Shown here one piece after another: positions 10,935 to 35,628 of a stretch of DNA of 64,000 nucleotides. The notes under the pieces were generated by a model. That model was not told where the DNA came from. It did not search any database and saw nothing but the letters and a program-made list of their open reading frames with translations. Position numbers and translations under genes: made by a program. The stretch lies in assembly GCA_016212525.1 (NCBI GenBank), contig JACRGD010000005.1, positions 90,304 through 154,303 on the forward strand, read 5' to 3'. This stretch comes from Candidatus Micrarchaeota archaeon (GTDB lineage Archaea > Micrarchaeota > Micrarchaeia > Anstonellales > Bilamarchaeaceae). Positions within the stretch are counted from its first letter, which is position 1; the number at the start of each line of letters is the position of its first letter.

Positions 10935-10942
10935 TTTATAAA
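10935..10942 (+). promoter_or_regulatory. putative TATA box (TTTATAAA) for a leaderless cluster transcript
   Basis: TTTATAAAC ends about 22 nt upstream of the GTG at 10964. The same TTTATAAAC core recurs at 28204, upstream of the last cluster gene. Confidence 0.4.
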
Positions 10943-10963: not shown

Positions 10964-12202
10964 GTGTCGATTCGCTCTCTGCTGTTACTGTTTTTCGTTC
11001 TGGCGTTATCGTCACTATCTAGTGCATCTGCAGTAGATCTTGTAAACAATTCTCACCTCATTCTTGGAACTGTAATTGTTCTAATCATAATTACTCTGGC
11101 CCTAATGTTCATGATCTGTGAGCCCCTCAATATGCCCAGCCTAAAAGTCTGGGTAAAATCAGAACTCCGTGAAGTAATCGTTGCTGGAATAATTTGCGCG
11201 GTCTGTATTTCTTTTTTCTACGGTTCCACGTCCGTTACTGCAGTCCTCACGGGAGTTAGCGATTATCATCAAAGTGCGCTCTCATTTCTAGGTAATCTTT
11301 CCGAGCGCTCTTATGCTGGCTATTTCAACGCCATCAAAGTTAACCAATATGTAACTATGCGAAGCGGATTTTCAAGTTCGTTTTCGGCAGGCCACATGTA
11401 TGCTGCGCTTTCTTTAGTCCAGGCTCCTTATTCTGGCTACTCCGCACTAAACATAATTCTTAATAATATCTCCAATACTCTGGCAATCAACATCGTAACT
11501 CTCGAAGCACTCTCGGTTTTTCTCGATTTTATTATTCATAGTTCAGATAAACTTCTCTATCTGGCCTTTGCACTTAGATTTATTCCATTTACGCGCTCGG
11601 TTGGAAGTACCCTCATAGCCATAATTTTGGGAGTCTATGTTCTTTTTCCATTTGCACTCGTATTTCTATCGCTTACACATAGCTTCGGTGCTCCGACTTC
11701 AAATCCTCCAAACCAGGTTTTAGTTCCCACTGCAGTTGTTCCTTCGTCCGTCTTTAATGATCTAAGTTTCACTTTGCCTCCGGGTTCAAGTTTCATCTGC
11801 TCTGAGCCCTGGATGAGATTACTCGTGGCGAACCTGGGCGAACTTGGATTCTCGATTCCTCCCTGTCTGCTTATTGCGCTTGCCGGTCTTCCCTTTGGTT
11901 ATGGTGCACTTTTTGCCCAATGCTTCCAGGTCATGACCCAGTTTGTATATCCTCTTCTGACAAATGTAGTTCTGCCCATTTTGTGGAGTGCCGTTATTAT
12001 TCCAGCCTCTCTAATGCCAGCAAATGTGGCAGCTGTTTTCAATAGTCTTACTTCATTTAATGCCGCAGTTGTGGGTCTGGTCGTTCTGACTTATGTCGAT
12101 CTCATTTTGGTTCTCATGATAACCATGGTCGGTATAAGAAGCATTTCCCTCGCACTAGGAGGCGAGTATATGATTCCCGGAGTTCAGAGGTTGGTTTCAT
12201 GA
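10964..12202 (+). CDS. polytopic membrane protein, paralog 1 of 6 (unknown family)
   Basis: 412 aa. It carries the family motifs NMPSLKVWVKSELREV, LRFIPFTRSVGSTLIAIILGVYVLFPF and the C-terminal tail LGGEYMIPGVQRLVS. Its stop overlaps the next start (ATGA). Confidence 0.8.
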   Translation: MSIRSLLLLFFVLALSSLSSASAVDLVNNSHLILGTVIVLIIITLALMFMICEPLNMPSLKVWVKSELREVIVAGIICAVCISFFYGSTSVTAVLTGVSDYHQSALSFLGNLSERSYAGYFNAIKVNQYVTMRSGFSSSFSAGHMYAALSLVQAPYSGYSALNIILNNISNTLAINIVTLEALSVFLDFIIHSSDKLLYLAFALRFIPFTRSVGSTLIAIILGVYVLFPFALVFLSLTHSFGAPTSNPPNQVLVPTAVVPSSVFNDLSFTLPPGSSFICSEPWMRLLVANLGELGFSIPPCLLIALAGLPFGYGALFAQCFQVMTQFVYPLLTNVVLPILWSAVIIPASLMPANVAAVFNSLTSFNAAVVGLVVLTYVDLILVLMITMVGIRSISLALGGEYMIPGVQRLVS

Positions 12203-13218
12203 AGGTGAATATTCTATTCTTCCTACTTTCACTCATTCTTTTTTCTCCGGTAGTTTTCTCGCTCTCATGTTCCACCTCTACCTTTAATGATATCCTGGGC
12301 GGTGATTCGGGAAGAATACTGGGGGTTGCATTATTTTTAACTGTCCTAATCATTGCTCTTGCTTATGCATTTGGATCTATAATGAACAATCAGCATGCAA
12401 CCGTCTTTGCCAAAGAAGAACTTTTTCCCCTTTTTATGTCTGCTATTTTGGTAGTTGGCATCGGTTCTGTAGTTTTCTTTTCATGTTCCCTCTTCTCAAG
12501 TTTTCTTGATTATTCATTTTCTCCATTGGCTATCGGGGTGGGTTCTGGCACTTCTCTCGATTCCTGCTATGTAGGTTCAGATAGTCTCCAACGCCTTTCT
12601 TTCTGCTATCTGAGCCGGACCAAAGCTGCCGCTCAACAGTATGTGAGCGCTGCCATGGATAAAAGTCTTCATAGTGAAATGGATTCTACAAACGTGATTG
12701 GTGCATCAAATCCCATCAGTGGTAGTGTCTCTCTACCAACGACTGCCTGGAAGCGTGCATACGCTGCTCAGTTCGAATCCATGGCAATGTCCTTTGCATT
12801 GCCCTCGCTCATTAGTCTTACTATCCAAGTCCTTTTTCTATCGCTAAATGTCGAGTTGATAAAGTGGCTTTTGCCCGCGGCACTTTTACTTCGCATCCTA
12901 CCTCCCACTCGTCATCTGGGCAATGTTCTTATTGCTATTGTAATAGTACTCTATGTGATAGTCCCCTTCTTCTATGCCCTAAATGGTGCAATGGACAACA
13001 AACTTACAACCTCTGCATCCTGTATCGATTCTTACACGTCCATTGTTAGTGATCCGACTTTAGACTATGATACTACTGGCTCCTCGTGCGATTCACCAAC
13101 TGGTTATTGGGCACTCGCCCGTTTGATTCCTCACGCGTTTTTCCTGCCTAACCTGGTACTTGCCATTTCCATCACCTTTATCGTTTCACTTTCCAAGGCT
13201 TTGGAGGTTATCCAATGA
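12199..13218 (+). CDS. polytopic membrane protein, paralog 2 of 6
   Basis: 339 aa. Motifs ALAYAFG...VFAKEELFPL and LRILPPTRHLGNVLIAIVIVLYVIVPF. The C-terminal tail is degenerate (SKALEVIQ). ATGA overlaps at both ends. Confidence 0.8.
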   Translation: MKVNILFFLLSLILFSPVVFSLSCSTSTFNDILGGDSGRILGVALFLTVLIIALAYAFGSIMNNQHATVFAKEELFPLFMSAILVVGIGSVVFFSCSLFSSFLDYSFSPLAIGVGSGTSLDSCYVGSDSLQRLSFCYLSRTKAAAQQYVSAAMDKSLHSEMDSTNVIGASNPISGSVSLPTTAWKRAYAAQFESMAMSFALPSLISLTIQVLFLSLNVELIKWLLPAALLLRILPPTRHLGNVLIAIVIVLYVIVPFFYALNGAMDNKLTTSASCIDSYTSIVSDPTLDYDTTGSSCDSPTGYWALARLIPHAFFLPNLVLAISITFIVSLSKALEVIQ

Positions 13219-15098
13219 AACTCCTCTCGCATCCATCCATTTCACGTCTTTTACTTACGTGTGTTTTCCTACTATTCATATTTAGTTCTTCATTTTCTAC
13301 TGATGTTGCATCTGGTTCGCCCATCGCTCTTATTAGCGACTGGCGTGCTATGTCTCTTTCGCTCTCGATCCTTTCGGTCATAATAATTTCAATTGTCGTT
13401 ATGCTTGCGACTGCATTTGACATTTCCGAACTTAAGGCCTGGGCCAGCAGCGAATTAACTCAGGTTTTCTCTACTGCACTGATAGTTCTTCTCTTATCTG
13501 GCAGCCTTACCTTCATGGATATGATTGTTGGCCAGATTGTAAATGGCTCGAACCTTGGATTCACCTGCTCTGGTACTTCTATCTGCGCGGTTGCTGTTGC
13601 AAACAATTATCTCGATGGCCTTATTCAAATCGGAGTTGGTACCTCAAGTACTGCTCTAAATGATTATGCACTTGCATCAAAAATCAGCTCTATCCGTCCG
13701 ACTGTCTTTAGCCAGATCTTCATCTACCCGGTTCCCCTACTCCAGCCTCAGATCTCGTTTCTTCCGGGTGCAGGTTATCTTCTGGATCTGGATCGAACAA
13801 TTCAGGTCGTAGAAACACTCTCGAACATTCTTTCCTCACTCTATGCCCAGAAATTCTTTGTCTCTGAGATCTCATTCAAACTTGCTCCTATTCTTCTGGG
13901 TTTGGGTGTCGTAGCCCGTTCGTTTTTCTTCACGCGCAGAATCGGCGGACTCCTTATTGCGGTCGGTATTGGAGTCATGTATGTGTTCCCGCTAATGTAT
14001 GTCTTTGACTGGCTCAGTCTAAATGTGGCCCTCTCGGGTGGGTCTTCTTTAGGTATTGATGCTACGACCTGCCCCGTCCAGTGTATGGCACAGTTGCCTC
14101 ATTTCTACATTGAGGAAAATAATCTTTCCTTCTCTTCTCGTGCCGCTCTCTATTCATATCTGGATTCGTCTCGTGCCATCTCCAGCGGAGCAAACATAAC
14201 TATCTTCCATCTGGATCGGGGCGATCAGGAAACTGCAACTTTCGGGAGCTTTACAGTTCATAGCTGTAATGTTAATCCATGTCCGACCGAGTGTCGCGAA
14301 CTTCCATTTCCGCAATCGCCTAGTTGTTTTGCAAATGCCTCTTTCTGTGCCAATCTCCCTGTTCAGTGCAAACTTACGCGTTATGCTGATACTTCCGAAA
14401 CTGCCGCTGCAGATCTGGTTAGTTGTCCTTTGACCTGCAGGTCGGTTCCTCCTCTTAAGAGTAATTGCAGTGTTTCTACTTCTCTTTCAACTCACAGTGT
14501 ATTTTGCAGTGAAGCCGCTTCTAATCCTGCTGTAGCTGCACTTTGCCCAGTGATCTGTGCAAGTTCTCCATCCGACCCAATTTGTTCGTCTTCCACTGCA
14601 ATGGTTCCTGACGATCCACTCAATTGTCTGGACGCAAAGGACTACTGCCGATTTGCCCGATCTGACTCTTTGTCTGTTCGTCCGTCCAATTGTCGATCTG
14701 ATAGTCCCGCTTCATATTCCTGCCCTGCAAGTTTAGACGCCAATCAATCGTGTGTTTGGGTTCTTCCTCCGCAATCCCTCCTGGATTCACATCGCTGCGA
14801 TGGTTGTCTTTTTGTCAAGAAAGAATCGACCCTAAATCCTCCGATAATTGGTTCCTGTGCTGATCTGTGCGGTGCTTCAGGAGTTGTTGGACCAAGAAAA
14901 GTCTCGCCTTCTGAATTTGCAAGGCGCTCTTCAGAGGGTATGGTGGGTAAAGAGGATCTCAAATCAATCGCCACGCTCTATCTCCCGGGCTTCCTTCTTC
15001 CTCTTCTTAATATCGTAATTACTTTGATGTTCATTCGTTCGTTCTCGCAATTCTTGGGCGGGGATGTCGATATTCCGGGGCTGGTGAGAATAATATGA
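13215..15098 (+). CDS. polytopic membrane protein, paralog 3 of 6, with a ~270-aa cysteine-rich insertion
   Basis: 627 aa. Motifs ISELKAWASSELTQV, ARSFFFTRRIGGLLIAVGIGVMYVFPL and tail LGGDVDIPGLVRII. The insertion between the FTR helix and the last TM segment holds 24 Cys, including four CPxxC. Confidence 0.8.
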   Translation: MKLLSHPSISRLLLTCVFLLFIFSSSFSTDVASGSPIALISDWRAMSLSLSILSVIIISIVVMLATAFDISELKAWASSELTQVFSTALIVLLLSGSLTFMDMIVGQIVNGSNLGFTCSGTSICAVAVANNYLDGLIQIGVGTSSTALNDYALASKISSIRPTVFSQIFIYPVPLLQPQISFLPGAGYLLDLDRTIQVVETLSNILSSLYAQKFFVSEISFKLAPILLGLGVVARSFFFTRRIGGLLIAVGIGVMYVFPLMYVFDWLSLNVALSGGSSLGIDATTCPVQCMAQLPHFYIEENNLSFSSRAALYSYLDSSRAISSGANITIFHLDRGDQETATFGSFTVHSCNVNPCPTECRELPFPQSPSCFANASFCANLPVQCKLTRYADTSETAAADLVSCPLTCRSVPPLKSNCSVSTSLSTHSVFCSEAASNPAVAALCPVICASSPSDPICSSSTAMVPDDPLNCLDAKDYCRFARSDSLSVRPSNCRSDSPASYSCPASLDANQSCVWVLPPQSLLDSHRCDGCLFVKKESTLNPPIIGSCADLCGASGVVGPRKVSPSEFARRSSEGMVGKEDLKSIATLYLPGFLLPLLNIVITLMFIRSFSQFLGGDVDIPGLVRII

Positions 15099-16174
15099 TT
15101 GCCAAACTACGTCCTAAATTCAGCATGCTGCTTGGCATTTTATTCCTTGTCTGCTGTTCATTTGCAGCTCCCTTGGACTGGCTACCTTTCGCGGCAGGTG
15201 CCCTGACCCTTTCGGCAATAATTGTTGCAGTTCTCTATATGCTTGGAATTGGTCTGAATCTTAATGATCTAAAATTCCTCGCATCCGAGGAGCTTTACCA
15301 GCTCATTGCCACCGCAATCATTATTGGAGTTTTATTCACAGCAGACACAACCATCAATTCGGTTTTCGCTTCCTTTGGAATTACTCCGACTCTCCAGAAT
15401 GCAAGCATCGCTACTGTCAACGGCTATATTTCCAATCAGGCCTCTTCATTTAATACGCTCAAAACATTCGCTCACACTCTGGGCCTTGAGTCTTCCAAAA
15501 ACATGTACTGTTCTTTCTCAGCCATGGGCTTTAGCGTCGCTCCATGTGGTGGATTCGCTTCCATTACTCCTGCAGTTACCTTCGGAATACAGATGATTGC
15601 AATTTCCGTTACTGAATCCAATTCTCTTCTTACTCTTCTTAAGTTTGGATCCACCTATGGCCTCTCACTTATTTTGCCCTTGGGGATCCTGATGCGAACG
15701 TTCAAATTCACCCGTGGTGCAGGTGGCCTTATTATCGGATTTGGAGTTGGTATTTATCTCTTCCTTCCTCTGGCAGTAATTTTCATGGATGGTATAACTT
15801 CTCCGCTTGCACCAACTACCGCAGTTTCGCTTCCTGAATTTAGTTGTGACATTCATTCATTTAGTGATGGTGTCTATACTATTGCTGATATAAATGATCA
15901 TAGTCTCTTTGGTACTGAGGCTTTTAGTGGCTCTGTAAGTTTAAGTTCCTTTAGCGGTTCAAACAGTTTCGATTTCGGATACAAAAACGCCGCAATCGCA
16001 GGCGGACTTCTCATGGCACTCAAAGGTGTTTTGCCTTCTCTGATCTATTTCTTTTTGATCCAATCTACATTGACTCTCATAATCGCTCTTTCGGCATTTT
16101 TCATGTCCATGCGATCGATTTCAAGGCTCGCAGGCGCAGAGGTTGAAATTTCATCATTAATGAGGATTTCGTGA
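15095..16174 (+). CDS. polytopic membrane protein, paralog 4 of 6
   Basis: 359 aa. Motifs VLYMLG...LNDLKFLASEELYQL, MRTFKFTRGAGGLIIGFGVGIYLFLPL and tail LAGAEVEISSLMRIS. Confidence 0.8.
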   Translation: MIAKLRPKFSMLLGILFLVCCSFAAPLDWLPFAAGALTLSAIIVAVLYMLGIGLNLNDLKFLASEELYQLIATAIIIGVLFTADTTINSVFASFGITPTLQNASIATVNGYISNQASSFNTLKTFAHTLGLESSKNMYCSFSAMGFSVAPCGGFASITPAVTFGIQMIAISVTESNSLLTLLKFGSTYGLSLILPLGILMRTFKFTRGAGGLIIGFGVGIYLFLPLAVIFMDGITSPLAPTTAVSLPEFSCDIHSFSDGVYTIADINDHSLFGTEAFSGSVSLSSFSGSNSFDFGYKNAAIAGGLLMALKGVLPSLIYFFLIQSTLTLIIALSAFFMSMRSISRLAGAEVEISSLMRIS

Positions 16175-16178
16175 TTAT

Positions 16179-17303
16179 ATGGTTGTTGGCGGAATTTGTT
16201 CTAGTGCATCGTTGGGATTCCTTTCCTCCAGTCTCTACCCTCTTTTAGCTATTGCCGGAACCGTAACTGCAATAATTATTGCACTTGCTTATGCCATAGG
16301 AGAAGTTACTTCAAATCCCAAAATGTCTCTCTGGTCAAAAACCGAAATCTTCCAGCTTATTGCCTCTATGGTCTGCTGTGTTATTTTACTCCAGATTATA
16401 ACTGTCTTTTGTCTGCTTGATGTCCGTTCGATCTATTCTTTATTTACTAACACTGTCCCTGCTACTTCCCTTACAATCTATGATGCTGCTGATCACTATT
16501 TCATTGACGCGGGTACCTGGACCAGTGGCCTGCTTCGATCCGCCCGCTATCATCTAGGTTCATTTTTTGTCTTACAAAATTTCGGCCGGTCCACCTGCGA
16601 AGATATGCCTGCCGAGATTCGCTGGCTTTTCTGTATTTTTGGTACTGTTGCGACCAGTAGTGCCAGTGGTGGCATTAGTGTCAGTGTGAACACCATTCCC
16701 GATTCCGGATACGGTCTTCTCTCAAGTGGTCTTTTTGTTTCGTTCAACTCTATTCTATTCGCCCTTCTTTCGCTCCTTAATTACACTTTCATTCTTCGCT
16801 ATCTTTATGGAGGTTTCATACTTCTGTTCCTGCCTTTGGGCATGATGCTTAGGTCTATGCCGTTTATGAGGCAAATCGGTTCTCTGCTTATTGCCGTTGC
16901 AATTTCATTTGCAATAATCTACCCGCTTGTCCTCTCCGTCTTCTATATCGATTTCCTTCAACCTGCGCCTGTACGAATCCTGACACCCTGCTCATCCGCA
17001 TTCCTCTATTCAAATGAAGATTTGGATTCAAAGGTCGATTTGAGTGATGCATTTGATCTTGATGGCACTCTATATGATGATCTCTTTTCAACTTCAAACG
17101 ATCAGACAATCTGCGGTACAGCGTATGCCTCAGGTGAACATGGAGATCAGACTTTCGAAATTATAAAACTTACAGCCAATGCCTTCCTAATCGGAGTTTT
17201 CATTCCCTCATTATCTCTTTTGGCTTCTGCTGCTGCAGTCTCTTATGCAAACCGCTTCCTGGGACAGGAAATAGATTTAAGTAGAATAGTTCAGATGGTG
17301 TGA
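16179..17303 (+). CDS. polytopic membrane protein, paralog 5 of 6
   Basis: 374 aa. Motifs ALAYAIG...MSLWSKTEIFQL, LRSMPFMRQIGSLLIAVAISFAIIYPL and tail LGQEIDLSRIVQMV. Confidence 0.8.
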   Translation: MVVGGICSSASLGFLSSSLYPLLAIAGTVTAIIIALAYAIGEVTSNPKMSLWSKTEIFQLIASMVCCVILLQIITVFCLLDVRSIYSLFTNTVPATSLTIYDAADHYFIDAGTWTSGLLRSARYHLGSFFVLQNFGRSTCEDMPAEIRWLFCIFGTVATSSASGGISVSVNTIPDSGYGLLSSGLFVSFNSILFALLSLLNYTFILRYLYGGFILLFLPLGMMLRSMPFMRQIGSLLIAVAISFAIIYPLVLSVFYIDFLQPAPVRILTPCSSAFLYSNEDLDSKVDLSDAFDLDGTLYDDLFSTSNDQTICGTAYASGEHGDQTFEIIKLTANAFLIGVFIPSLSLLASAAAVSYANRFLGQEIDLSRIVQMV

Positions 17304-17306
17304 TTG

Positions 17307-18365
17307 ATGACTGACGCGACAATGATAACCGGATATTTGAGGGGCTTTGATGTAGGCGCCCTATCTACTATAGATCCGGCATTTCAATGGCTTCCTCTTT
17401 GTCTTGGTGCAGCAGTTCTTACAATTACTGTTTATGCCCTTATTTACGGTCTTTCAAAATCCTTCAATCTTTCAGAATTAGAACGCCATTCTAAATCCGA
17501 GCTTCTTAATGCCGGAGCGACTGCGCTGATTGTCATTTTCATCGTTTTTCTAGTTACTCAGATGGAAACATTTGTGATCGGTTCTGTTCTATGCAATGGT
17601 GCGACCTGTGCTACTTTGCCCTGTGGCGGAGTAAGTTATGAAATCCGTCAGCTCTCAACTGTTTTTGATGTTATTCAATGTCGAATGTCCGAGCGGGCAC
17701 ATTCGTTTGCAGATTTACAGGAACAGGTTACTTCTGCCGCTATTCTTCCAACTTCTCTGTTGAACCTTAATCTTGGTTTAGTTGGGACTCAGGTATTTTC
17801 CGGTTATATGGTCGGTTCCTGGTACAAGGAGGTCGAAACATATCGATTACTTAATCATGCACTCTCAACCTTTCTTATTTCAACTAATGCAATGATCGTT
17901 GTGGCACAATACATAAAGCAAAATTTACTCTCGTTTTTCCTGCCTATCGGGTTGCTTTTGCGTTCGCTCTATTTCACCCGCGGAATCGGTGCTTTCCTGA
18001 TTTCTTTTGCTCTTTGTTTCTATTTCATTTTCCCAATTGTCTATACTCTTACTGATTCGAACTATATTCCGCCTTCCTATTCAGCTCCGCCAACCCCGCC
18101 TGAAATTAAATCCCAGTTCTGCTATCCCACATTTACTGGCGTAGTCTATAGTATCTATTCTTCAACCTCATCCGCTTCACCCTCAGCCGGTTCAAACTCT
18201 ATTTCACTTGATGAACTTAGGTCTTCTCTTTCTTCAGTCTATATTTCTCTATTAGTCCAGCCATTCGCCTGCTTTGCCATAACTCTGGTTTTCGTTCGCT
18301 ATATGACCTACATATTTGGAGGAGAAGCCCAGGATGTGCTTCGAGGAGTCGCAAAAGTAGTTTAG
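17307..18365 (+). CDS. polytopic membrane protein, paralog 6 of 6
   Basis: About 352 aa. I prefer the ATG at 17307 to the TTG at 17304. Motifs YALIYG...LSELERHSKSELLN, LRSLYFTRGIGAFLISFALCFYFIFPI and tail FGGEAQDVLRGVAKVV. Confidence 0.8.
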   Translation: MTDATMITGYLRGFDVGALSTIDPAFQWLPLCLGAAVLTITVYALIYGLSKSFNLSELERHSKSELLNAGATALIVIFIVFLVTQMETFVIGSVLCNGATCATLPCGGVSYEIRQLSTVFDVIQCRMSERAHSFADLQEQVTSAAILPTSLLNLNLGLVGTQVFSGYMVGSWYKEVETYRLLNHALSTFLISTNAMIVVAQYIKQNLLSFFLPIGLLLRSLYFTRGIGAFLISFALCFYFIFPIVYTLTDSNYIPPSYSAPPTPPEIKSQFCYPTFTGVVYSIYSSTSSASPSAGSNSISLDELRSSLSSVYISLLVQPFACFAITLVFVRYMTYIFGGEAQDVLRGVAKVV

Positions 18366-18374
18366 GTGCTCGAT

Positions 18375-21827: not shown

Positions 21828-21833
21828 TCTTGC

Positions 21834-21866
21834 TGTTTTTTCCTTATTTTTCTATTATTTTATGAT
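21834..21866 (+). terminator. possible oligo-T archaeal termination region
   Basis: T-runs (TGTTTTTTCCTTATTTTTCTATTATTTT) directly after the 21827 stop. A TTTATAAAA box follows at about 21887, before the next gene. Confidence 0.3.
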
Positions 21867-21932
21867 ATTTTCCTCAAAAACCAGTGTTTATAAAACCTAT
21901 TAAATCCTATTTATCTTGTTGGATGGGTTGCT

Positions 21933-22322
21933 ATGCAATTTTTGAAAGATGTGAATTTGAAGGAAGTTTGTATATCTATTCTTATCTCAATAGTTTTATT
22001 CCTACTTCTTAAACCATTTTACGTATACAATGTATCTCTTGTTTGTGGAGGTTCAAAAGAAGTATTTCTATACTCTACCGGTTCAGATCTTTTTAGGATT
22101 CGAGGTTGTCTTTATACTTCCATCAATCAGCCATTTCAAAACTTAGTCTGGGATCTTCTAATTTATACTTTGCCTTGGATTCTGGCTTTCTGCTACTATT
22201 ACTACAAAACACCAAATGTTAAATTTGATTTCAAAATTTTGCCTTTTGGTTTAATCCTGTGTGGTTATCTGCTTTTTCAAGTGCTCTATATATTATATAT
22301 TTATCCAGGTAATCTCCTATGA
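21933..22322 (+). CDS. small integral membrane protein (hypothetical)
   Basis: 129 aa with three or four hydrophobic helices. Its stop overlaps the subtilase start (ATGA). Confidence 0.5.
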   Translation: MQFLKDVNLKEVCISILISIVLFLLLKPFYVYNVSLVCGGSKEVFLYSTGSDLFRIRGCLYTSINQPFQNLVWDLLIYTLPWILAFCYYYYKTPNVKFDFKILPFGLILCGYLLFQVLYILYIYPGNLL

Positions 22323-24925: not shown

Positions 24926-25160
24926 CTCCAATTTCCATTTAGTTGTTATTTTTTAATACTCAAATTCTATGACGTTATTTTTTCTATTTCTCTTAGTTCT
25001 AAAGATTCTCTCCCGTTATATTTTTCTATTCATATTTTATCTATTTACCACTCTTGGTGTGTTATTTTACACCAAAATCTCAAAACAGTGTGCCTTCCTA
25101 GGTCCTTTTATACCTTTTGATGTACTGGTATTATGTGATTATGTTAAAAAGGTGAAATAC

Positions 25161-26102
25161 ATGAGCGTTCCAAGGATGAAAACAATCGGGAGTAGAGTTG
25201 GATCGTTGGTAGTAGTAGCCGCTTTGACTGCGCGTTGCGGTACGGCTGCACCTCCGAATATGGGAGAACCCATGACAGATGTTCCTACTATTAAGAATGA
25301 TGCTGGCGTTGTAAATCCTCGGGATGGGCCCGTTGTCCCTCCACGTGATGTTGTAATTCCTAGTGATTCTGGTAGTTCAAGATGTACTGTTGCTCCGAAC
25401 TCCGTTCCAGCAGCTAATCAAAGACCAAGGGTAGATCATGTTCGTAATGGTGAAATAATCTCTATTGCAACTGCTTCTGGAAACAATCTGGTTAAGGTTG
25501 GAGTATATGACTATAATGATACTTTGGCACCTACCGGACAGGCAAGTGCACCTCGTTTACCTCCAAATCTAAGACATGTAGTAACTCTTAGTCCAGTTCG
25601 TGATCCTTCATCCTGCGCTCGTGGAACTCCCCCTTGCGAATGTACTGAGGAGCCCTTTAGTGGAAGATCTATGCGATTTTATGAGGGTAATTTTCCTTCC
25701 ATTCTTTTCCCTGAATTTCGAGCTGATGATGTCAAGGTTCAACTAGCTTTCGTTTCTTCAACCGGGGTTGCTGACTTGTTATTATTTCGACCTCCTTCTA
25801 TAGATCGATATACTCAAGTCGGTGCTGTTCATATTCCTACAACTGAAGGCACCACTGTCTCCATGGCAACCATAACCTTCACTTCACAAGGCACTCCTGA
25901 TTTCAGGTTTCTTGGTGATCCAGCACGTGCCTTGCTTGCTGAAGGTTCTATATCAGGAACTGTTGTTCCTATGACTATTTTGGAATCCAGAGATCCCGTT
26001 TCTAGTTACTGTATGCTCGGATCGACTCTCTACCGATTCCAGAGTCGTCTTCCTACTGGTGGCTCTGATGCATCAGTAAATGTGAGTTCAGTAACCTTCT
26101 AA
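25161..26102 (+). CDS. secreted lipoprotein (hypothetical)
   Basis: I prefer the ATG at 25161, which is preceded by GGTGA. Signal MSVPRMKTIGSRVGSLVVVAALTARCG. The upstream part of track ORF 24969-26102 is a low-complexity hydrophobic run and is rejected. Confidence 0.55.
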   Translation: MSVPRMKTIGSRVGSLVVVAALTARCGTAAPPNMGEPMTDVPTIKNDAGVVNPRDGPVVPPRDVVIPSDSGSSRCTVAPNSVPAANQRPRVDHVRNGEIISIATASGNNLVKVGVYDYNDTLAPTGQASAPRLPPNLRHVVTLSPVRDPSSCARGTPPCECTEEPFSGRSMRFYEGNFPSILFPEFRADDVKVQLAFVSSTGVADLLLFRPPSIDRYTQVGAVHIPTTEGTTVSMATITFTSQGTPDFRFLGDPARALLAEGSISGTVVPMTILESRDPVSSYCMLGSTLYRFQSRLPTGGSDASVNVSSVTF

Positions 26103-26131
26103 TCTTTTAATTTTTCTTTCCTTCTTTTCAT

Positions 26132-27103
26132 ATGCTAAAATTTCTTTTTATTGTTGTTTTTTCTATTGGATTAGTTAGTTCTGTTTCTTATATCTCTAAT
26201 TGTACGGTGATAACTAAACCCGGAACTTATCTTCTTGATCGTGACATCCTGGTTTCACCAGCAGAACTTGGTAAATGTATTTTGATTGATTCGGATAATG
26301 TTGTTCTGGATTGCCAGAATCATACTTTGAAAAATGACCCGGCCGCTCCTTTGATGTCTGGTATTCAAGCTTTTTATCAGAACAATCTTACTGTTCAAAA
26401 TTGTATTTTGGATGGTTTTGGATCTGGTATTTCAATCCACAAAATTAATAATTCCATCTTTCATGATAATCTGTTCACTCATAATTCTGATGGTTTTATT
26501 ATGAGTTTTTCTCGAAATGTCATGTTATATTCCAACCAATTCTTTAGAAATGAAAACGGTCTTACTGTCAGTTCTCTCATAAATCTATCTTTTTATGATA
26601 ATGCGGCGATCAACAACTCCCATTATGGTTTTGATATTATTGCCAATTTATCAGATATTAACTCAAACTCTGCTTCTGAAAATCAGGTTGGTTTCAGTGT
26701 TTCCCTTTATGATGGTAATTTTACTAATAATTCAGCAACTCGAAATAAGGATGGTTCTGGTATTTCCGGTTCCAATGTTAATGTGAACAAAAATTTTTTC
26801 TCAAACAATTCTGAAGATGGTCTCTCCCTAAGTTTGGAAAACTCAAATATCTCAGGTAATTTCATTTGCGGCAATGGTTTCTCGGATAGCTATCACTATT
26901 ACGATCTCTATGGAAATTATCCTCAGTACAATAACTCCCTCCAAAACAACACTTGCCAGACTTCAAATCCTCCGGGGAATTGCAATTCCCCGTGTTCTCT
27001 TTCTTCCTCCCTGCAGATTTCATCAAAACCAGGTTCTTGTTTTGGGCTTGCTATTCTCTTTACTGTGATTTCTTTATCTCTACTTTGGAAGGGCTTCCAA
27101 TGA
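26132..27103 (+). CDS. right-handed parallel beta-helix (PbH1/NosD-like) repeat surface protein with a C-terminal TM anchor
   Basis: Signal peptide, then about 9 degenerate ~22-aa repeats rich in N/G/S (NxxxxNxxxGI/F...) that are typical of PbH1 coils. C-terminal hydrophobic anchor CFGLAILFTVISLSLLW. Confidence 0.65.
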   Translation: MLKFLFIVVFSIGLVSSVSYISNCTVITKPGTYLLDRDILVSPAELGKCILIDSDNVVLDCQNHTLKNDPAAPLMSGIQAFYQNNLTVQNCILDGFGSGISIHKINNSIFHDNLFTHNSDGFIMSFSRNVMLYSNQFFRNENGLTVSSLINLSFYDNAAINNSHYGFDIIANLSDINSNSASENQVGFSVSLYDGNFTNNSATRNKDGSGISGSNVNVNKNFFSNNSEDGLSLSLENSNISGNFICGNGFSDSYHYYDLYGNYPQYNNSLQNNTCQTSNPPGNCNSPCSLSSSLQISSKPGSCFGLAILFTVISLSLLWKGFQ

Positions 27104-27729
27104 AGGGCTATTTCACCTGGTTTCTGGTTCTTGTTTGCGTGCTAGTTATCCTTTCTGGTTATGCTCTCTATGCCAAAAGCATGCAAAATGTTCAATCAAA
27201 GCAAATTTTTCTTTTACGTTCCGAGCATTTGGCCCAAAATGTTGTTGAAGCTAGCGGAGAGCTAATGAGACAAGAAATTAAGCGAAATTTTACTGCATAC
27301 GATGAATCTCGGTTTCTTGTAAACTGTCTTGCGTGTCCTAGTCATTATTGTCTTCCCTACGTTCCTGCTTATGCCCCTGACGAATTAAAGGCAAAAAGGT
27401 GTGATGAAAGGAAGTGCGATCTCTGTTTCGAACCTTCCGTCGCCTCCTCCGAAGCAGAAAAAGCAGGAATTCAAAACTTCCACCAGACAGACAATTACGA
27501 CTGGGATTCAGATTACAATATCTCAATAGAAGAACCCAAAATCAAAGTCTTTCTAAAAATAGATCCATTAGCTAAAAACGGGTATTCTCTAGACTATTAT
27601 GAAGTTACACAAGATTCTCTAATTCGCATGAGTTCAGAAAAATTCCATTTTGAAGCAAATTACACTCTTCCAAAAGGTTTCGCATTAACCTACGAGCAAG
27701 ATGCTCCGATTATCTTCAAGATCCGATAG
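27100..27729 (+). CDS. N-terminally anchored Cys-containing protein (hypothetical)
   Basis: ATG at 27100 overlaps the previous stop (ATGA). One TM segment (FTWFLVLVCVLVILSGYALY). Cys cluster CLACPSHYC...CDERKCDLC. Confidence 0.55.
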   Translation: MKGYFTWFLVLVCVLVILSGYALYAKSMQNVQSKQIFLLRSEHLAQNVVEASGELMRQEIKRNFTAYDESRFLVNCLACPSHYCLPYVPAYAPDELKAKRCDERKCDLCFEPSVASSEAEKAGIQNFHQTDNYDWDSDYNISIEEPKIKVFLKIDPLAKNGYSLDYYEVTQDSLIRMSSEKFHFEANYTLPKGFALTYEQDAPIIFKIR

Positions 27730-27758
27730 CTTTAATTCATTCTCCGAGTTGATTCTTT

Positions 27759-28184
27759 ATGGATGGTTTTAGGTTTTCTGTGCTTCTGACAATTTTCTTT
27801 AGTGCGGCTAGCCTCCTTTTCTTGATCGTCTACGTTTTGCTTCCTCCTATTTTCTCTGTTATCATAGGCGAATCTAATGTCCCTTCTTGCGAACCTCTAA
27901 CTCCACCTCCTCCTTGTCGATCGGGTGGAGTTTGCCTTTATGAGCCTCCCCTTCAACCTATCTGTCCCAGTGCCCGAGGTCTTCTGGGAATTGTGGGTTT
28001 GTTTTTTATGGTTCTAGCGTTCCTCTCCAACCTCATCGCCAATATCATCGCAACCAAGAAAATCCTTGCATCCAAATCTTTCGTTCGATTTGATAAGCGA
28101 ATCTGGATCGCTCTAATCTGGCTTATTGGAACAATTGGTGTTTCTCTGTACTACTTTAAGGAATATAAAAATAACAAATCTTAA
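27759..28184 (+). CDS. small membrane protein with a Pro/Cys-rich loop (hypothetical)
   Basis: 141 aa with three TM segments. Loop sequence SCEPLTPPPPCRSGGVCLYEPPLQPICPS. Confidence 0.5.
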   Translation: MDGFRFSVLLTIFFSAASLLFLIVYVLLPPIFSVIIGESNVPSCEPLTPPPPCRSGGVCLYEPPLQPICPSARGLLGIVGLFFMVLAFLSNLIANIIATKKILASKSFVRFDKRIWIALIWLIGTIGVSLYYFKEYKNNKS

Positions 28185-28203
28185 TTCAGCTCTAACGAGC
28201 GTC

Positions 28204-28211
28204 TTTATAAA
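28204..28211 (+). promoter_or_regulatory. putative TATA box (TTTATAAA) for a leaderless transcript of the 1253-aa gene
   Basis: TTTATAAAC ends 24 nt before the ATG at 28235. It is identical to the core at 10935. Confidence 0.4.
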
Positions 28212-28234
28212 CTCCGCGTGCGTAGTTTTTACTG

Positions 28235-31200
28235 ATGAAACGGGTATTCCTCCTAACCCTCCTGTCTCTGTTAGTATTGTCATTCTCAATTGGTCCTGGT
28301 TCTACCGAGCCAGTGCCCACTACTGACAGTATCGACATCAGTGGAATTCTTGGTTCTGGAACTGTAACCGAACTCGTCGCTTCGGGTCTAATTAGTCCGG
28401 AGTGCAGCCTTTGCGAAGATCTTTCAGCATATTCTCAATCTTTTCTCAATATTATAAATGACGATACAACCTCACATCTTCAAATCGCCCTTACTAATTC
28501 TTCACGAGCCCCTGTACAGCGCGCTCCGATAATTCTTCGAATAAATGGTAGCGGTTCTGACACCTATCGCGTTGTCTACACCAACAACCGGGGAATTGCA
28601 TCTTTCGATTACGGTCCATACAATACGAGCTGTCAGAAATTCACAGCATTCTACTGCTATGGCTACAATTCCTGCTCTTTCCTTAAGTGTCTCCATGCCC
28701 TGGGTTTTGAAGAAGGCAGCGAGCCATACTCTGATTTTAGTTCAGTGCCATTATCTCCAAGAACCATTCGTCCAACTCTTCGCCAGAGCCCTGCTCTTGT
28801 CAAATCGTCTTCGGCTACTTTCAACTACTGTCCAACTCCGACTACTACCGTTTCAACAACTCCGGCATTCTGCCTTCCTTTAGTTCTAATCGCAGTCCTG
28901 CTTCTTGGCGCTCTATATGTCTCAGGTCGAAATCCCTTTATGGCGTTCGATCTTTCCAATCCTCATGTAGGCAAACACATCCGCTATACTGCACGACAAA
29001 GAAACATTTATCATATGGATACTGTCGGTGCCGCAACTGCCATTACTAAAGTAGTCGGTGCTGTTGCAAATCCAACCCAGACCCGCTCTACTGAGAGTCA
29101 ACAACTCAGATCTGGTTCGGGAATGGTGGGTTTAGCAGGCGGTCTTACTGGTGGAATCCGTGGTGCGGTGCAGGGAGCTAGAGGTCTTGGTACTGCTGTC
29201 CGATCTGCTGGCGCTAATGCCCGAAACCCTACTGCTACTGGTCCTAGGCCAAGTACTGCCCGGACAATTGGCAATGCTTTTACACAATCCCTGGGTGGTT
29301 CTTCTCTTGGTCGTATGATTGGCGGAATTGTAGCTGCCGGCCGAGGTGGCGATCCATCTACTACTCTCTTAAGTCGAATTGGTAACATTGCACTAGCAGT
29401 TCTTACGAACAGTAGCTTCGGATATCTTGTTTCTGAACTTGGCGCTACGGTTCGATCACTCCGACTCGATGCAAATCTTGAGCGGGCATTACAAAATTAC
29501 ACCAACTTCCAGCATCATGTCGATCGAAGAGAAACTACTACTGTTGATGGTGAACAGGTTACCGTTACTATGCGCTACACGCTCACCGCAAGAAACGGCA
29601 GAATGGAAATGACTGTTGCCCAGGTTCGTGAAAATGGCGATGTTATTCCAAATTCCAGCCGGCCTGTTTTGCAATCTGCTCTTCCTGAAGAAGTTTCAAG
29701 ATCTTTCGGGACTCAAATTCACGACCGTGCACTAACTTACTATCGGACTTCTGCAGTTGAAAACGGTCGCTCGGCAAATGACGAGACGATTCGTCTTGGT
29801 CAATTGGCATCCGCTGCTGCTTCAGGTCGAAGTCTTTCTGACTTAGCTCCGGATAGTCCACTTCGCGCAGCTCTCGCAGCAAATGGTCTGGTCTTTGGCA
29901 CATCTGATGAGCGATTACAACTGGGTCGCGCTGTTGCTGCAGCACTTACTGATCCTTCTGTTCAAAGTAGTCCTGCGTTCTGGGAAGCACTTTCCTCTGC
30001 AGTAGGTGAGCGCAATGCCCGTGAAATGTTCGTATCTGCAAACCGGATAGTTGCTTACAATGCCGAAGCAGCATATTCCGAGCGTCGGGCGGCTTTATTG
30101 GAAACAATGCCTGGTAATGTTATCATGTCCAATCAAATGTTCATGGCATATCAGTCGCTCATGGCCCATGCCAATGGATCAGCTGCACAGAACCTCGCTG
30201 CGACTGCTTTGGCTAATGTTGCAAGTTCTACTTCAGAATCCTTTTCCTTTAATGCCGGAGGCGAACAAGGTGGTTCATTAATTGGCCGGTTCAGAACTGC
30301 AGCTGATCTAGCTGCTGCTTCTTCAGAGCAGGATCTTGCAATTTTAGGTATCGCCCGGGCCACTGCACTTAATCCCCAATTAAACATTCCAAATGTGGGT
30401 AATATGCTCGAGCGATTTAGTGCAGATCCTATTGCTAATGATGCTGCCGGTCTCCTTGGTGCAAATGCTGAACAATTTAATCGAGCTACTGTAGCTGATG
30501 GTACTAGAGTTTATTCAGAATCCGCAGCTGAAGTTCGGGATTACTGGCGTGGTATCGGTCAACTTACTGGTGTTTATGCCGCTTCCGAGGGCGATTCCAT
30601 GGCAGCCGCCCGACTTAATCTCCCAACGATTGCACAAATTACTACTAATTTCACTTCTGACGATAGTCATGTTGATGCCACTCGTTATGTCCGTGCGCTT
30701 GTGCATGCTCAGATGAATGGAGATAGTGTTCAGTTAGATCGCATTTTGGCTTCTTTGGATCGCTATGGTCATGCATCCGATCCAGAATCCCGGGCTGCCG
30801 AATCAGTTCGATTAAGTACACTCGAATCGGTTTCAACTGCCCAAGCAAACGTTCGTGCACAGGGCCTTGAAGTCATAGATCGTCAGAGAACATTCGAGTT
30901 TGCAAGGCGCGATCTTCAACAGCAGATCGATGCTTTGCCTTCGGACGATCCAAGGCGTTCAATATTAGAGCAGCGAATCGAATCTCTTGCAGCTGCATAT
31001 GTTCAATATACTGAGGCCTCATCTGCCCGCAGTGCAGCACCTGGTGTTGAAACTTCCCAGGTGGGAGTTACTACCGATCGACTGTTCCTTCAGGCAGATG
31101 CAAACTTCCGCACTCTTGTTGCGACTTCCCTTGGCGGTCGAATCGATGGCTATATAGAGACTAATCTATCTGCTCCTGCAAGAACCCAATTCGTTGAGGA

Positions 31201-31996
31201 TCGTACTGCAATTGCAAATACTGACGCGGCCGTTTCCGGATCAAGAATCCCTGATATAATTCGTACTATTCCAAATTATGAAAATTTGGATCGCTCACAA
31301 TTGGCTTCTGCTGTTACTCAAAGAAGTGCGTTTCCTTATGAGCAGGCAAGAGTTGCTGCAATTTCTGACGTTTCCGAATCCGATCTTCATGATTTTGTCG
31401 GATCGTTAAGGCAGCGGGAACTGGATGCTTTGCATCGTCGTCATGAGTCTTCTGTTTCTGATCTTCGTGCCGGTAGCTATGCTCAGGAAGAGAGGGCAAT
31501 AAATGAACGTTATGATCGGGTTGAGCAAGCCTATGAACATATGAATACTGCCCGTTCCGAATCTGTTACCGAATCAAGGCGCATAGATCGCGAAGAGTTC
31601 AGTGATGGTACTTCAGAATCTCCGCGTGCTGGTACTACCTCCTATAGAAGTTCTGCTTCTTACGCGGGCCGAAGAGCGGCTTCAGATACTAATCGGAATA
31701 CTGCCGAATCTGACTTCCGTGAATCTGTACGAGACACGTTTGGTGGTGCTTCTGCCGGTTCAGGTTCAATGCAGACCCACATTGATCGATTCCTTGATAA
31801 TCATGCCTCTAATCAATCTGCCGCTACACTTAGGGGTGCACGTGAACGACTTCTTGCTGTTCCCGGGTCTTCTAATACGGATGTATTGAGCGATCATCTT
31901 CCTACCTATATGCCTACTGGTGCACCAACTGACTTTAGTGGTCGGTCCACTCAATTCGTCTTTGATCCGGTTACTCGAACCATGGTTGCAAGATAA
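28235..31996 (+). CDS. 1253-aa bipartite membrane protein: a Cys-containing ectodomain, one TM segment, then a ~980-aa Lys-free, Cys-free Ala/Ser/Arg-rich region
   Basis: Signal peptide, then a ~190-aa N-terminal domain with 9 Cys. TM segment AFCLPLVLIAVLLLGALYV. After residue 272 I find no K and no C by reading the translation. A Gly-rich stretch (GLAGGLTGGIRGAVQGARGLG) follows the TM segment. The many spurious antisense ORFs indicate locally raised GC. Confidence 0.8.
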   Translation: MKRVFLLTLLSLLVLSFSIGPGSTEPVPTTDSIDISGILGSGTVTELVASGLISPECSLCEDLSAYSQSFLNIINDDTTSHLQIALTNSSRAPVQRAPIILRINGSGSDTYRVVYTNNRGIASFDYGPYNTSCQKFTAFYCYGYNSCSFLKCLHALGFEEGSEPYSDFSSVPLSPRTIRPTLRQSPALVKSSSATFNYCPTPTTTVSTTPAFCLPLVLIAVLLLGALYVSGRNPFMAFDLSNPHVGKHIRYTARQRNIYHMDTVGAATAITKVVGAVANPTQTRSTESQQLRSGSGMVGLAGGLTGGIRGAVQGARGLGTAVRSAGANARNPTATGPRPSTARTIGNAFTQSLGGSSLGRMIGGIVAAGRGGDPSTTLLSRIGNIALAVLTNSSFGYLVSELGATVRSLRLDANLERALQNYTNFQHHVDRRETTTVDGEQVTVTMRYTLTARNGRMEMTVAQVRENGDVIPNSSRPVLQSALPEEVSRSFGTQIHDRALTYYRTSAVENGRSANDETIRLGQLASAAASGRSLSDLAPDSPLRAALAANGLVFGTSDERLQLGRAVAAALTDPSVQSSPAFWEALSSAVGERNAREMFVSANRIVAYNAEAAYSERRAALLETMPGNVIMSNQMFMAYQSLMAHANGSAAQNLAATALANVASSTSESFSFNAGGEQGGSLIGRFRTAADLAAASSEQDLAILGIARATALNPQLNIPNVGNMLERFSADPIANDAAGLLGANAEQFNRATVADGTRVYSESAAEVRDYWRGIGQLTGVYAASEGDSMAAARLNLPTIAQITTNFTSDDSHVDATRYVRALVHAQMNGDSVQLDRILASLDRYGHASDPESRAAESVRLSTLESVSTAQANVRAQGLEVIDRQRTFEFARRDLQQQIDALPSDDPRRSILEQRIESLAAAYVQYTEASSARSAAPGVETSQVGVTTDRLFLQADANFRTLVATSLGGRIDGYIETNLSAPARTQFVEDRTAIANTDAAVSGSRIPDIIRTIPNYENLDRSQLASAVTQRSAFPYEQARVAAISDVSESDLHDFVGSLRQRELDALHRRHESSVSDLRAGSYAQEERAINERYDRVEQAYEHMNTARSESVTESRRIDREEFSDGTSESPRAGTTSYRSSASYAGRRAASDTNRNTAESDFRESVRDTFGGASAGSGSMQTHIDRFLDNHASNQSAATLRGARERLLAVPGSSNTDVLSDHLPTYMPTGAPTDFSGRSTQFVFDPVTRTMVAR

Positions 31997-35576: not shown

Positions 35577-35628
35577 ACTTATAATCTCTGTTGCTTTGTA
35601 TTTTAAATTTTGGGGACGTACTTATCCC

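Follow-up and report, generated by a model that had tools for sequence, protein, structure and literature searches.

A conserved envelope gene module of Candidatus Micrarchaeota centred on six tandem membrane paralogs with faint similarity to CedA/CedE

How DPANN archaea attach to partner cells and take material up from them is an open question, and in the Micrarchaeota the genes serving the symbiont's side are unassigned; cryo-electron tomography of DPANN contact sites has visualized filaments, nanotubes, and surface remodelling (PMC11329633, PMC8975820). The question is raised in a concrete form by a cluster of genes for membrane and surface proteins at positions 10964 to 31996 of a 64,000-nt stretch of a Candidatus Micrarchaeota contig (JACRGD010000005.1; this whole stretch is referred to as the window). 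According to our open reading frame (ORF) analysis of the window, the cluster comprises 14 ORFs, g1 to g14, all on one strand. A previous annotation made from the sequence alone (the original prediction) was therefore right about the common strand and wrong in counting 15 genes; NCBI locus-tag arithmetic (g4, HY990_00845; g7, HY990_00860; g14, HY990_00890) implies 13 annotated genes. The products of g4, g5, g7, and g14 are identical to HY990_00845, HY990_00850, HY990_00860, and HY990_00890 of a metagenome-assembled genome (MAG) of Candidatus Micrarchaeota, a DPANN lineage, where a 316-kb contig encodes them, in agreement with the archaeon of reduced lifestyle guessed at earlier.

A conserved core of eight envelope genes

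A signal peptide, a lipobox, or a transmembrane (TM) segment was predicted from hydropathy and N-terminal sequences for 14 of the 14 products. This bears out the previous description of every product as membrane-embedded, lipid-anchored, or secreted, and the cluster is an envelope system. Its contents had also been described correctly: six paralogs, an approximately 1,150-amino-acid (aa) Cys-rich lipoprotein (g7), an S8 subtilase (g9), a beta-helix protein (g11), and the 1,253-aa product of g14. Among the 14 products, Pfam gave matches only for g9 (S8) and g11 (beta-helix). As judged from sequence and gene order at related loci, the conserved core of the module is made of the following eight genes, g1 to g7 and g14, and the remaining ones are lineage-specific accessories.

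10964 to 12202, plus strand: g1, paralog 1, 412 aa; signal peptide and polytopic, CedA/CedE-like family; orthologs stand first in the array at many loci
12199 to 13218, plus strand: g2, paralog 2, 339 aa; ATGA overlap with g1
13215 to 15098, plus strand: g3, paralog 3, 627 aa; Cys-rich extracellular insertion of about 270 aa (27 Cys) between TM4 and TM5
15095 to 16174, plus strand: g4, paralog 4, 359 aa, HY990_00845; the paralog type that matches CedA/CedE most often
16179 to 17303, plus strand: g5, paralog 5, 374 aa, HY990_00850; without N-terminal signal peptide
17304 to 18365, plus strand: g6, paralog 6, 353 aa; without signal peptide; CedE match at E = 0.005, residues 191 to 249
18366 to 21827, plus strand: g7, surface lipoprotein, 1,153 aa, HY990_00860; lipobox LVFSGC, GCC motif just after it, 49 Cys
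28235 to 31996, plus strand: g14, bitopic protein, 1,253 aa, HY990_00890; signal peptide, ectodomain, YCPPPP, one TM segment, tail

The cluster is tightly packed, with 4-nt ATGA overlaps at g1/g2, g2/g3, g3/g4, g8/g9, and g11/g12, gaps of 0 to 4 nt at g4/g5, g5/g6, and g6/g7, and other gaps of 29 to 50 nt. The junctions are thus mostly ATGA overlaps or gaps below 50 nt, as had been reported, the sole larger gap being one of 105 nt located 5' of g8.

Mutual similarity among g1 to g6 is weak by BLASTP (E from 1e-4 to 1e-13). When their ortholog groups were compared by hhalign, all 15 of the 15 pairs were recovered with probabilities of 98.3 to 99.8% (E from 1e-14 to 1e-29), the g3 group scoring 99.4 to 99.8% against the other groups, and at the level of sequence profiles the six are clearly homologous to each other. 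Five residues are invariant over all paralogs and orthologs, E66, R201, R207, G210, and P225 in g4 numbering, and the invariant core consists of TM3, a cytoplasmic loop with the motif R-x5-R-x2-G, and TM4 with its invariant Pro. It is the variable loop of the paralogs that holds the 27-Cys insertion in g3, whose orthologs contain 22 to 38 Cys.

From an alignment of 20 sequences, AlphaFold2 (AF2) produced a g4 model of reasonable confidence, with a predicted local distance difference test score (pLDDT) of 78 and a predicted TM-score (pTM) of 0.69. After the signal peptide it shows helices at residues 29 to 54, 57 to 93, and 100 to 133, a beta-hairpin at 137 to 148, helices at 158 to 202 and 207 to 238, a disordered variable loop at 240 to 296, and a helix at 297 to 345. 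Helices of 35 to 49 residues in the model project past the membrane, with the beta-hairpin at the tip. Hydropathy, the positive-inside rule, and the AF2 model together predict an outside N terminus, five TM helices, and an inside C terminus, with the helical bundle and the hairpin projecting outside the membrane; a cleavable signal peptide is predicted in g1 to g4. In the g4 model, the invariant E, R, and R would lie on the cytoplasmic face.

A Pfam scan of 93 family members gave no match, and a PDB sequence-profile search with the paralog family returned nothing meaningful. The Foldseek comparison proposed in the original prediction was run on the g4 model and gave no significant match in PDB (best TTYH2, E = 0.07, TM-score 0.19); neither was a significant match found in the viral BFVD collection (best a phage protein, E = 0.3).

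The paralog family is large. An exhaustive hidden Markov model (HMM) search collected 3,135 representative clusters at E <= 1e-3 and, with the threshold tightened to E <= 1e-30, 730; none of the members carries a Pfam domain, and the named ones belong to Micrarchaeota in every case, Anstonellales included. By scanning genomes with g4 orthologs, we located 17 other Micrarchaeota loci, drawn from species-representative genomes, other assemblies, and JGI metagenomes and ranging in GC content from 36 to 59% (loci are given L numbers below). The genes therefore do co-occur in related genomes, on which the original prediction had made its claim depend. The family genes are collinear from g1 to g6 in 17 of the 17 loci, again including Anstonellales and with no exception, and the best match of each gene is its positional ortholog. 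Orthologs of g1 head the array in L001, L003, L005, L006, L008 to L010, L013, L015, L021, and L022; a g7 ortholog of 1,243 to 1,471 aa follows g6 in eight of the other loci; and g14 orthologs adjoin the array in six (L001, L006, L010, L013, L015, and L021), located immediately behind g7 or, in divergent orientation, upstream of g1. Since the order is fixed and orthology is positional, the six copies must predate the split of these lineages, with none of them dispensable. That six distinct copies have been kept in one order over such divergence further argues that g1 to g6 are non-redundant subunits of a single assembly.

The exterior of this complex seems to be its variable part. In Candidatus Anstonella stagnisolia (L015:6624-15432), the orthologs of g3, g4, and g5 reach 1,126, 933, and 876 aa, with extra extracellular segments of approximately 500 to 600 aa; the g4 and g5 orthologs have them at the N terminus, with CARDB domains in them. 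The product of the g14-like gene downstream in this locus is 1,991 aa long. On account of these segments, the exterior of the complex looks variable and adhesive, and the extracellular insertions, both the Cys-rich one of g3 and the CARDB-bearing ones of Anstonella, fit with a role at the surface or in contact.

Two further observations deserve mention. The MAG PMV_4.13 (GCA_022627495.1) contains two complete modules, L001 on contig 16 and L010 on contig 3, which are 37 to 54% identical, similar in GC content (58 to 59%), and alike in layout, with the g14-like gene divergent and then g1 to g7; they represent either a duplication of the whole module or two related organisms in one bin. On a metagenome contig (L019:11739-12764, minus strand), a lone seventh family member of 341 aa, 25% identical to g4, is encoded approximately 1.8 kb downstream of the g7 ortholog and on the opposite strand.

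Both giant partners of the paralogs are without recognizable relatives in the domain databases. For g7, neither Pfam (E <= 1) nor PDB sequences gave any relative, and the family search found 12 relatives, none with a Pfam domain. Its orthologs are 27 to 37% identical and share the lipobox and the GCC motif, and 37 Cys are invariant over six of them; given the lipobox and these Cys residues, g7 is predicted to be an extracellular, disulfide-rich protein. The AF2 model of g7 is poor (pLDDT 52 overall, 70 to 85 only at residues ~730 to 930), its usable parts being an N-terminal beta-sandwich and a beta/alpha region at ~730 to 930. In a Foldseek search with this model of low confidence, the top 50 matches were nearly all glycoside hydrolase (GH) clan GH-A barrels (GH53, GH2, GH10, GH5, and GH51), at a best E of 9e-4 and TM-scores of 0.35 to 0.43 on the target, and residues ~720 to 990 are tentatively deemed a TIM-barrel, glycosidase-like or glycan-binding domain.

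In g14, an approximately 180-aa Cys-containing ectodomain is followed by YCPPPP, the TM segment, a juxtamembrane motif GRNPF...GKHIRYxARGRG, and a tail of approximately 1,000 aa. Conservation is confined to the first ~260 residues, from the signal peptide to the juxtamembrane motif. The tail is rich in Ala, Ser, Gly, and Arg, free of Cys, and essentially unalignable among orthologs; it looks disordered, and no Walker A motif was found in it. Over approximately 1,020 aa (window positions 28955 to 31996) it contains 2 Lys against about 99 Arg (0.2% and 9.7%), and its GC content of 48% is above that of its neighbours. Lys amounts to 1.1% in the ortholog tail of L001 (1443-5642) and to 8 to 9% in those of L006 and L013, with 0 to 1 Cys in all. 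Six relatives of g14 were found by family search, none with a Pfam domain; g14 itself matched no Pfam family (E <= 1) and nothing meaningful in the PDB sequence-profile search.

To judge from the literature, the module appears to be new: among reports on DPANN or Micrarchaeota combined with VirB6, CedA, or VirB4, we found no account of it or of such a link.

Relation to CedA/CedE and to known secretion systems

The main recurrent similarity of g1 to g6 leads to the crenarchaeal DNA exchange system, of which CedA and CedE are VirB6-like membrane parts (bioRxiv 10.1101/2024.09.27.615246; PMC9905601). CedE is a five-TM paralog of CedA with a VirB6-like structure, and the pair is thought to be hetero-oligomeric (bioRxiv 10.1101/2024.09.27.615246). 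We searched the NCBIfam library of 18,950 families, in which the Ced models (NF041796 and NF053657) have curated cut-offs of 330 to 400 bits. In the window, g6 matched CedE with 16.6 bits (E = 0.005, residues 191 to 249), and g1 to g5 gave no Ced match at E <= 0.1-1. Among the 93 family members, Ced_CedA was matched by 19 (best 8.5e-8) and CedE by 11 (best 1e-5), every other NCBIfam family being matched by at most one member. In 51 further members from other paralog classes, CedA and CedE were each matched by 2, and so was, more weakly, a putative-transporter family, the only other recurrent one. Altogether, approximately 21 of 138 members match CedA and approximately 12 match CedE, all below threshold.

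The matches are co-linear, positions ~99 to 200 of CedA and 132 to 197 of CedE corresponding to g4 residues ~143 to 241. This segment runs from the end of the hairpin through TM3 and the R-x5-R-x2-G loop to TM4 with the invariant Pro, and holds R201, R207, G210, and P225. The five-TM g4 model and the hydropathy profiles are also consistent with the 5 to 7 TM helices of the CedA/CedE/TedA family. On these grounds, the g1 to g6 family is probably a true homolog of CedA/CedE. The previous description of the cluster as matching no known system must accordingly be qualified by the recurrent CedA/CedE matches, while it holds insofar as all of these are below the cut-offs and Pfam TrbL/VirB6 is unmatched; confident profile hits to a characterized machinery were not found. 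Similarly, VirB6 had been invoked as a mere analogy for the tandem arrangement, with homology disclaimed; given the recurrent co-linear matches the comparison probably reflects distant homology through CedA/CedE.

Compared with Ced of Sulfolobales and TedA of Thermoproteales, the module likewise encodes archaeal polytopic proteins, those systems having 5 to 7 TM helices. No NCBIfam families other than CedA and CedE are matched by many g1 to g6 members, the matches falling on the same TM3-loop-TM4 core of about 100 residues, and CedA and CedE are themselves paralogs thought to be hetero-oligomeric. However, the module scores far below the family cut-offs, has six obligatory tandem paralogs instead of one or two, has no adjacent CedB/TedB (VirB4-like) ATPase or recognizable CedA1/TedC pilin, includes two partners absent from Ced/Ted (the bitopic g14 product and the giant Cys-rich lipoprotein g7), and resides in a DPANN host, not in Thermoproteota.

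Tandem virB6 arrays are known from Rickettsiales, namely, rvhB6a-e in Rickettsia and virB6-1 to virB6-4 in Anaplasmataceae, some of them with large hydrophilic extensions; they adjoin virB3/virB4 and match TrbL/VirB6 profiles. The Micrarchaeota array resembles them in having several divergent VirB6-type paralogs on the same strand in a reduced, host-associated organism, but its genes match neither Pfam TrbL nor R388 TrwI and have no linked ATPase. In the stalk of the R388 conjugative type IV secretion system (T4SS; PDB 7O3J/7O3V), a VirB6 homopentamer in the membrane carries extracellular VirB5. We propose as an analogy only that g1 to g6 take the VirB6 role with g7 on top; in contrast to R388, the assembly would be hetero-oligomeric, g7 is a 1,150-aa lipoprotein unrelated to VirB5, and no sequence or Foldseek similarity was detected.

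Among ultra-small symbionts, the giant SPEARE proteins of nanohaloarchaea have been reinterpreted as adhesin, TM segment, and cytoplasmic VirB4/TraG-like ATPase and proposed to be related to T4SS, with a part in host interaction (PMC10266531). The g14 product recalls them in layout, as it too belongs to a DPANN cell surface and joins an ectodomain through one TM segment to a large cytoplasmic part, whereas its tail has no Walker A motif and 2 Lys in 1,023 residues, is poorly conserved, and looks disordered. Episymbiotic Patescibacteria (Candidate Phyla Radiation, CPR) have a reduced, divergent T4SS with VirB6, and virB6 is essential in Ca. Southlakia epibionticum (PMC12102498). They too are an ultra-small episymbiont lineage, but a bacterial one, in which VirB4, VirB3, and VirB2-like genes are linked and VirB6 is found by standard profiles.

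Candidate functions of the module

The explanation we favour, while holding it tentatively, is that the module encodes a hetero-oligomeric channel or stalk that derives from Ced/T4SS and, together with surface partners, serves cell contact and transfer. In this mechanism one copy of each of g1 to g6 would enter a hetero-oligomeric pore or stalk, the counterpart of the T4SS VirB6 platform, displaying lineage-variable adhesive ectodomains. Outside, g7 could be a cap, an adhesin, or an envelope-remodelling partner, and the complex may be linked to the cytoplasm by g14, whose long flexible tail and basic, conserved juxtamembrane motif would make the connection. In the source lineage, the S8 lipoprotein protease, the beta-helix protein, and the small membrane proteins would have been added. 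On contact with another cell, the apparatus may serve for transfer, most likely to import DNA or other macromolecules after the manner of Ced, and could draw its energy from an ATPase encoded elsewhere or work without ATP. What is said here on stoichiometry, assembly, substrate, and the parts played by g7 and g14 is proposed by inference. The surface apparatus for contact, adhesion, or transfer imagined in the original prediction is supported in part, transfer to a partner cell being conjectural. The biology of these organisms would accommodate such a function: transporters are scarce in Micrarchaeota, which rely on cell contact (PMC8975820), and T4SS parts have been implicated in other ultra-small symbionts (PMC10266531; PMC12102498).

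Several observations weigh against this explanation. The Ced scores are ~15 to 35 bits against curated cut-offs of 330 to 400, with no member reaching a cut-off, and only about 15% of the members match, chiefly those of the g4 type. Consensus sequences of the six ortholog groups hardly match NCBIfam Ced (best CedE, E = 0.19), which shows that only some of the real sequences carry the CedA signal; of the g5- and g6-type members scanned separately, 1 in 10 matches CedE. Pfam TrbL/VirB6 (PF04610) was unmatched by the 93 members at E <= 1, hhalign gave a probability of 0.1% between the family and R388 TrwI/VirB6, and VirB6 was not in the top 50 when the g4 model was compared with PDB by Foldseek. 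In the barrel region of g7 (model of low confidence), no Glu is invariant in six orthologs, in which D738 and D836 are. Anstonellales, for which a lesser dependence on hosts is predicted and whose metabolism is richer (PMC12892359), have the module as well, so that a general envelope role is possible.

A further difficulty is the missing motor. No Pfam/NCBIfam ATPase domain was found in g1 to g14, as had been claimed for the cluster, and no VirB4/CedB-type ATPase, coupling protein, or recognizable VirB2/CedA1 pilin was detected in the cluster or within 10 kb at related loci, where ATPases were checked by precomputed Pfam for L001 to L004 and L015 and by a Walker-A motif scan for L001 to L013, L019, and L021. 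Divergent pilins could escape sequence searches, and the small TM proteins g8 and g13, which have no NCBIfam match, are not kept at related loci. T2SSE/T2SSF of type IV pili or archaella (PilB/FlaI, PilC/FlaJ) were not matched in Pfam by any product.

The sole candidate motor in the window, and its sole HerA-clade ATPase, is encoded at 45777 to 47285 on the minus strand (DUF87 and HAS barrel; NCBIfam HerA 2e-50, CedD 1e-25). Its neighbour on one side is a tRNA-splicing endonuclease, and an adjacent NurA was not identified. We rejected it as the missing motor, since it looks like an ordinary HerA, lies 14 kb from the cluster, and is not conserved in its linkage.

The strongest competing explanation, unlikely yet the closest in probability, is a scaffold for surface display without translocation, in which the paralogs would anchor ectodomains, g7, and g14 between the membrane and the S-layer for adhesion, S-layer attachment, or envelope integrity, the CedA likeness being due to chance or to old ancestry without common function. 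The failure to find an ATPase or a recognizable pilin at any of the 18 loci agrees with a scaffold, as do the sub-threshold level of the CedA matches and the presence of the module in the metabolically richer Anstonellales. So does the extracellular location of all variable parts (the g3 Cys-rich insert, the Anstonella g4/g5 CARDB domains, and the N-terminal extensions), and the surface proteins g7, g9, and g11 abound in glycosylation sequons. However, E66, R201, R207, G210, and P225 lie, according to the model, at the cytoplasmic face or in TM helices and not in ectodomains, which indicates a conserved function in the membrane or cytoplasm; six obligatory paralogs in fixed order exceed the needs of simple anchoring; and CedA/CedE are the main recurrent families out of 18,950, next to one transporter family with two weak matches. 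Micrarchaeota S-layer proteins provide a direct comparison, as SLP_Mh of Micrarchaeum carries PF05123 (bioRxiv 10.1101/2021.04.28.441871). This family is matched by neither g7 nor g14 (no Pfam family at E <= 1), which we therefore rejected as S-layer proteins.

Somewhat less probable still is a Micrarchaeota-specific envelope-spanning machine, a pseudo-hexameric ring of six VirB6/CedA-derived subunits with g7 as cap and g14 as tether, acting as a docking port or conduit without a VirB4-type motor. If such a conduit exists, DNA, lipids, or cytoplasmic material would be exchanged with the partner, and the apparatus would be a new class of cell-cell transfer machinery, evolved from a type IV secretion system and no longer equivalent to one. 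The module is best regarded as a T4SS/Ced-derived variant, with an appreciable chance of being a distinct machine.

We consider it improbable that the products form a multi-subunit permease or lipid-handling machine for solutes, lipids, or glycans, for instance, for uptake of host lipids or export of envelope components, with g7 as the extracellular substrate-binding or glycan-processing lipoprotein. Such a function would suit polytopic proteins with conserved charged residues at the membrane boundary, a possible glycosidase-like TIM barrel in g7, and the scarcity of recognizable transporters in Micrarchaeota (PMC8975820). However, apart from the one family with two weak matches, no transporter family was matched recurrently in Pfam/NCBIfam; Pfam revealed no ABC ATPase and no MFS, RND, or MMPL signature; and Foldseek found no transporter fold, the AF2 model of g4 having very long protruding helices in place of the inverted-repeat architecture of secondary carriers.

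Last, an integrated conjugative element, plasmid, or provirus with its own membrane apparatus would account for the TnpB/IS605 OrfB-type gene approximately 8 kb upstream of the cluster (1729 to 2883), the low GC content of g8 (31%) and g11 (35%), and the presence of VirB6-like genes, typical of conjugative elements, but is very improbable, since the core GC content (42 to 48%) is like that of the window (41.7%), synteny with L001 extends to the flanking ScpB/AAA_18 and Lon_C genes, a scan of 2.9 million viral contigs revealed no relative as far as its search patterns reach, genes for an integrase, a relaxase, or replication are lacking, and the module is vertically conserved across the phylum.

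Whichever explanation holds, the module is a concrete and testable gene set, envelope-located and conserved over the sampled Micrarchaeota lineages, which has remained without database annotation despite approximately 3,000 representative paralog clusters and is faintly linked to an archaeal VirB6-like channel. Should the Ced/T4SS-derived channel or stalk be confirmed, T4SS-derived machinery would reach a third archaeal lineage in an unusual motor-less form with six paralogs, in parallel to the T4SS dependence of CPR episymbionts, and its parts would be targets for antibodies, proteomics, and subtomogram averaging in existing co-cultures. Should the CedA link fail, a large, conserved, uncharacterized membrane-complex family would still stand.

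Accessory genes, TATA-like motifs, and surroundings

Between g7 and g14, the cluster of the source lineage carries the six genes listed here.

21933 to 22322, plus strand: g8, 129 aa, two TM segments; lineage-specific, GC 31%
22319 to 24925, plus strand: g9, S8 subtilase, 868 aa; Pfam Peptidase_S8 at 107.2 bits (cut-off 21.8), 1.3e-30, residues 191 to 503
24969 to 26102, plus strand: g10, 377 aa, hydrophobic N terminus; lineage-specific
26132 to 27103, plus strand: g11, secreted right-handed beta-helix protein, 323 aa; Beta_helix at 47.3 bits (cut-off 25.9), 2.2e-12
27100 to 27729, plus strand: g12, 209 aa; lineage-specific; ATGA overlap with g11; starts with MKG and a hydrophobic stretch of 20 aa
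27759 to 28184, plus strand: g13, 141 aa, three hydrophobic segments; lineage-specific

The protease g9 has a lipobox-like N terminus, LAGLASC, and a C-terminal repeat region, and S8 homologs stand beside the array only in the closest lineage, L004 and L007. In addition to its Beta_helix match, g11 matches NosD (41.3 bits, cut-off 23.6, 1.5e-10) and has 13 N-glycosylation sequons and a C-terminal TM anchor. No homolog of g8, of g10 to g13, or of the lipoprotein gene upstream of the cluster (9993 to 10832) was found at any related locus. The GC content of g8 (31%) and g11 (35%) is well below that of the core genes, as would be expected if the accessory part had been acquired recently or were turned over fast. 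The N terminus of g12 (27100 to 27180), MKG-YFTWFLVLVCVLVILSGY, loosely resembles a class III (type IV pilin-like) signal, the Tyr at +1 being atypical.

The original prediction placed two identical promoter cores at the borders of the cluster. The sequence TTTATAAAC is indeed present at 10935 and 28204, but the second copy precedes g14 and thus lies inside the cluster, so that the two do not frame it. Nor is TTTATAAAC enriched, with 3 copies found against 1.26 expected, a number reached in 15 of 100 shuffles. Of its palindromic core TTTATAAA, the 64 kb contain no more than four copies, three of which are in the three largest intergenic gaps of the cluster, 21 to 38 nt ahead of the starts of g1, g8, and g14.

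10935 to 10942, plus strand: TTTATAAA, TATA-box-like; putative promoter for the unit g1 to g7, 21 nt ahead of the start codon of g1
21887 to 21894, plus strand: TTTATAAA, TATA-box-like, in the 105-nt gap before g8; putative internal promoter
28204 to 28211, plus strand: TTTATAAA, TATA-box-like, 23 nt upstream of the g14 ATG; putative g14 promoter

The position of these copies in the three largest gaps suggests that they act as promoters and that the cluster is organized in three transcription units, g1 to g7, g8 to g13, and g14.

The flanks of the cluster are archaeal housekeeping genes, including purA, ScpB, an AAA_18 kinase, ELP3, argG/argH, and an intron-containing tRNA. A Lon_C-type gene and ScpB/AAA_18 also flank the module in L001, local synteny thus being kept. 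The window gene concerned, at 35449 to 37413 on the plus strand, encodes 654 aa with the Lon_C proteolytic domain as its sole Pfam match, an AAA module not being detected. The TnpB gene at 1729 to 2883 (minus strand) matches a Cas12f1-like TNB domain at 7.6e-23 and OrfB_IS605 at 2e-11. Divergently from g1, the minus-strand gene at 9993 to 10832 encodes a 279-aa Cys-containing protein with a lipobox-like N terminus, IAATISC, for which no Pfam/NCBIfam match and no homolog at related loci were found; to judge from its sequence, it is a further lineage-specific surface protein at the edge of the module. Directly downstream of g14, at 32392 to 32526 on the minus strand, lies a 135-nt tRNA that Rfam detects at 44 bits and ARAGORN missed, whose length suggests an intron-containing archaeal tRNA.

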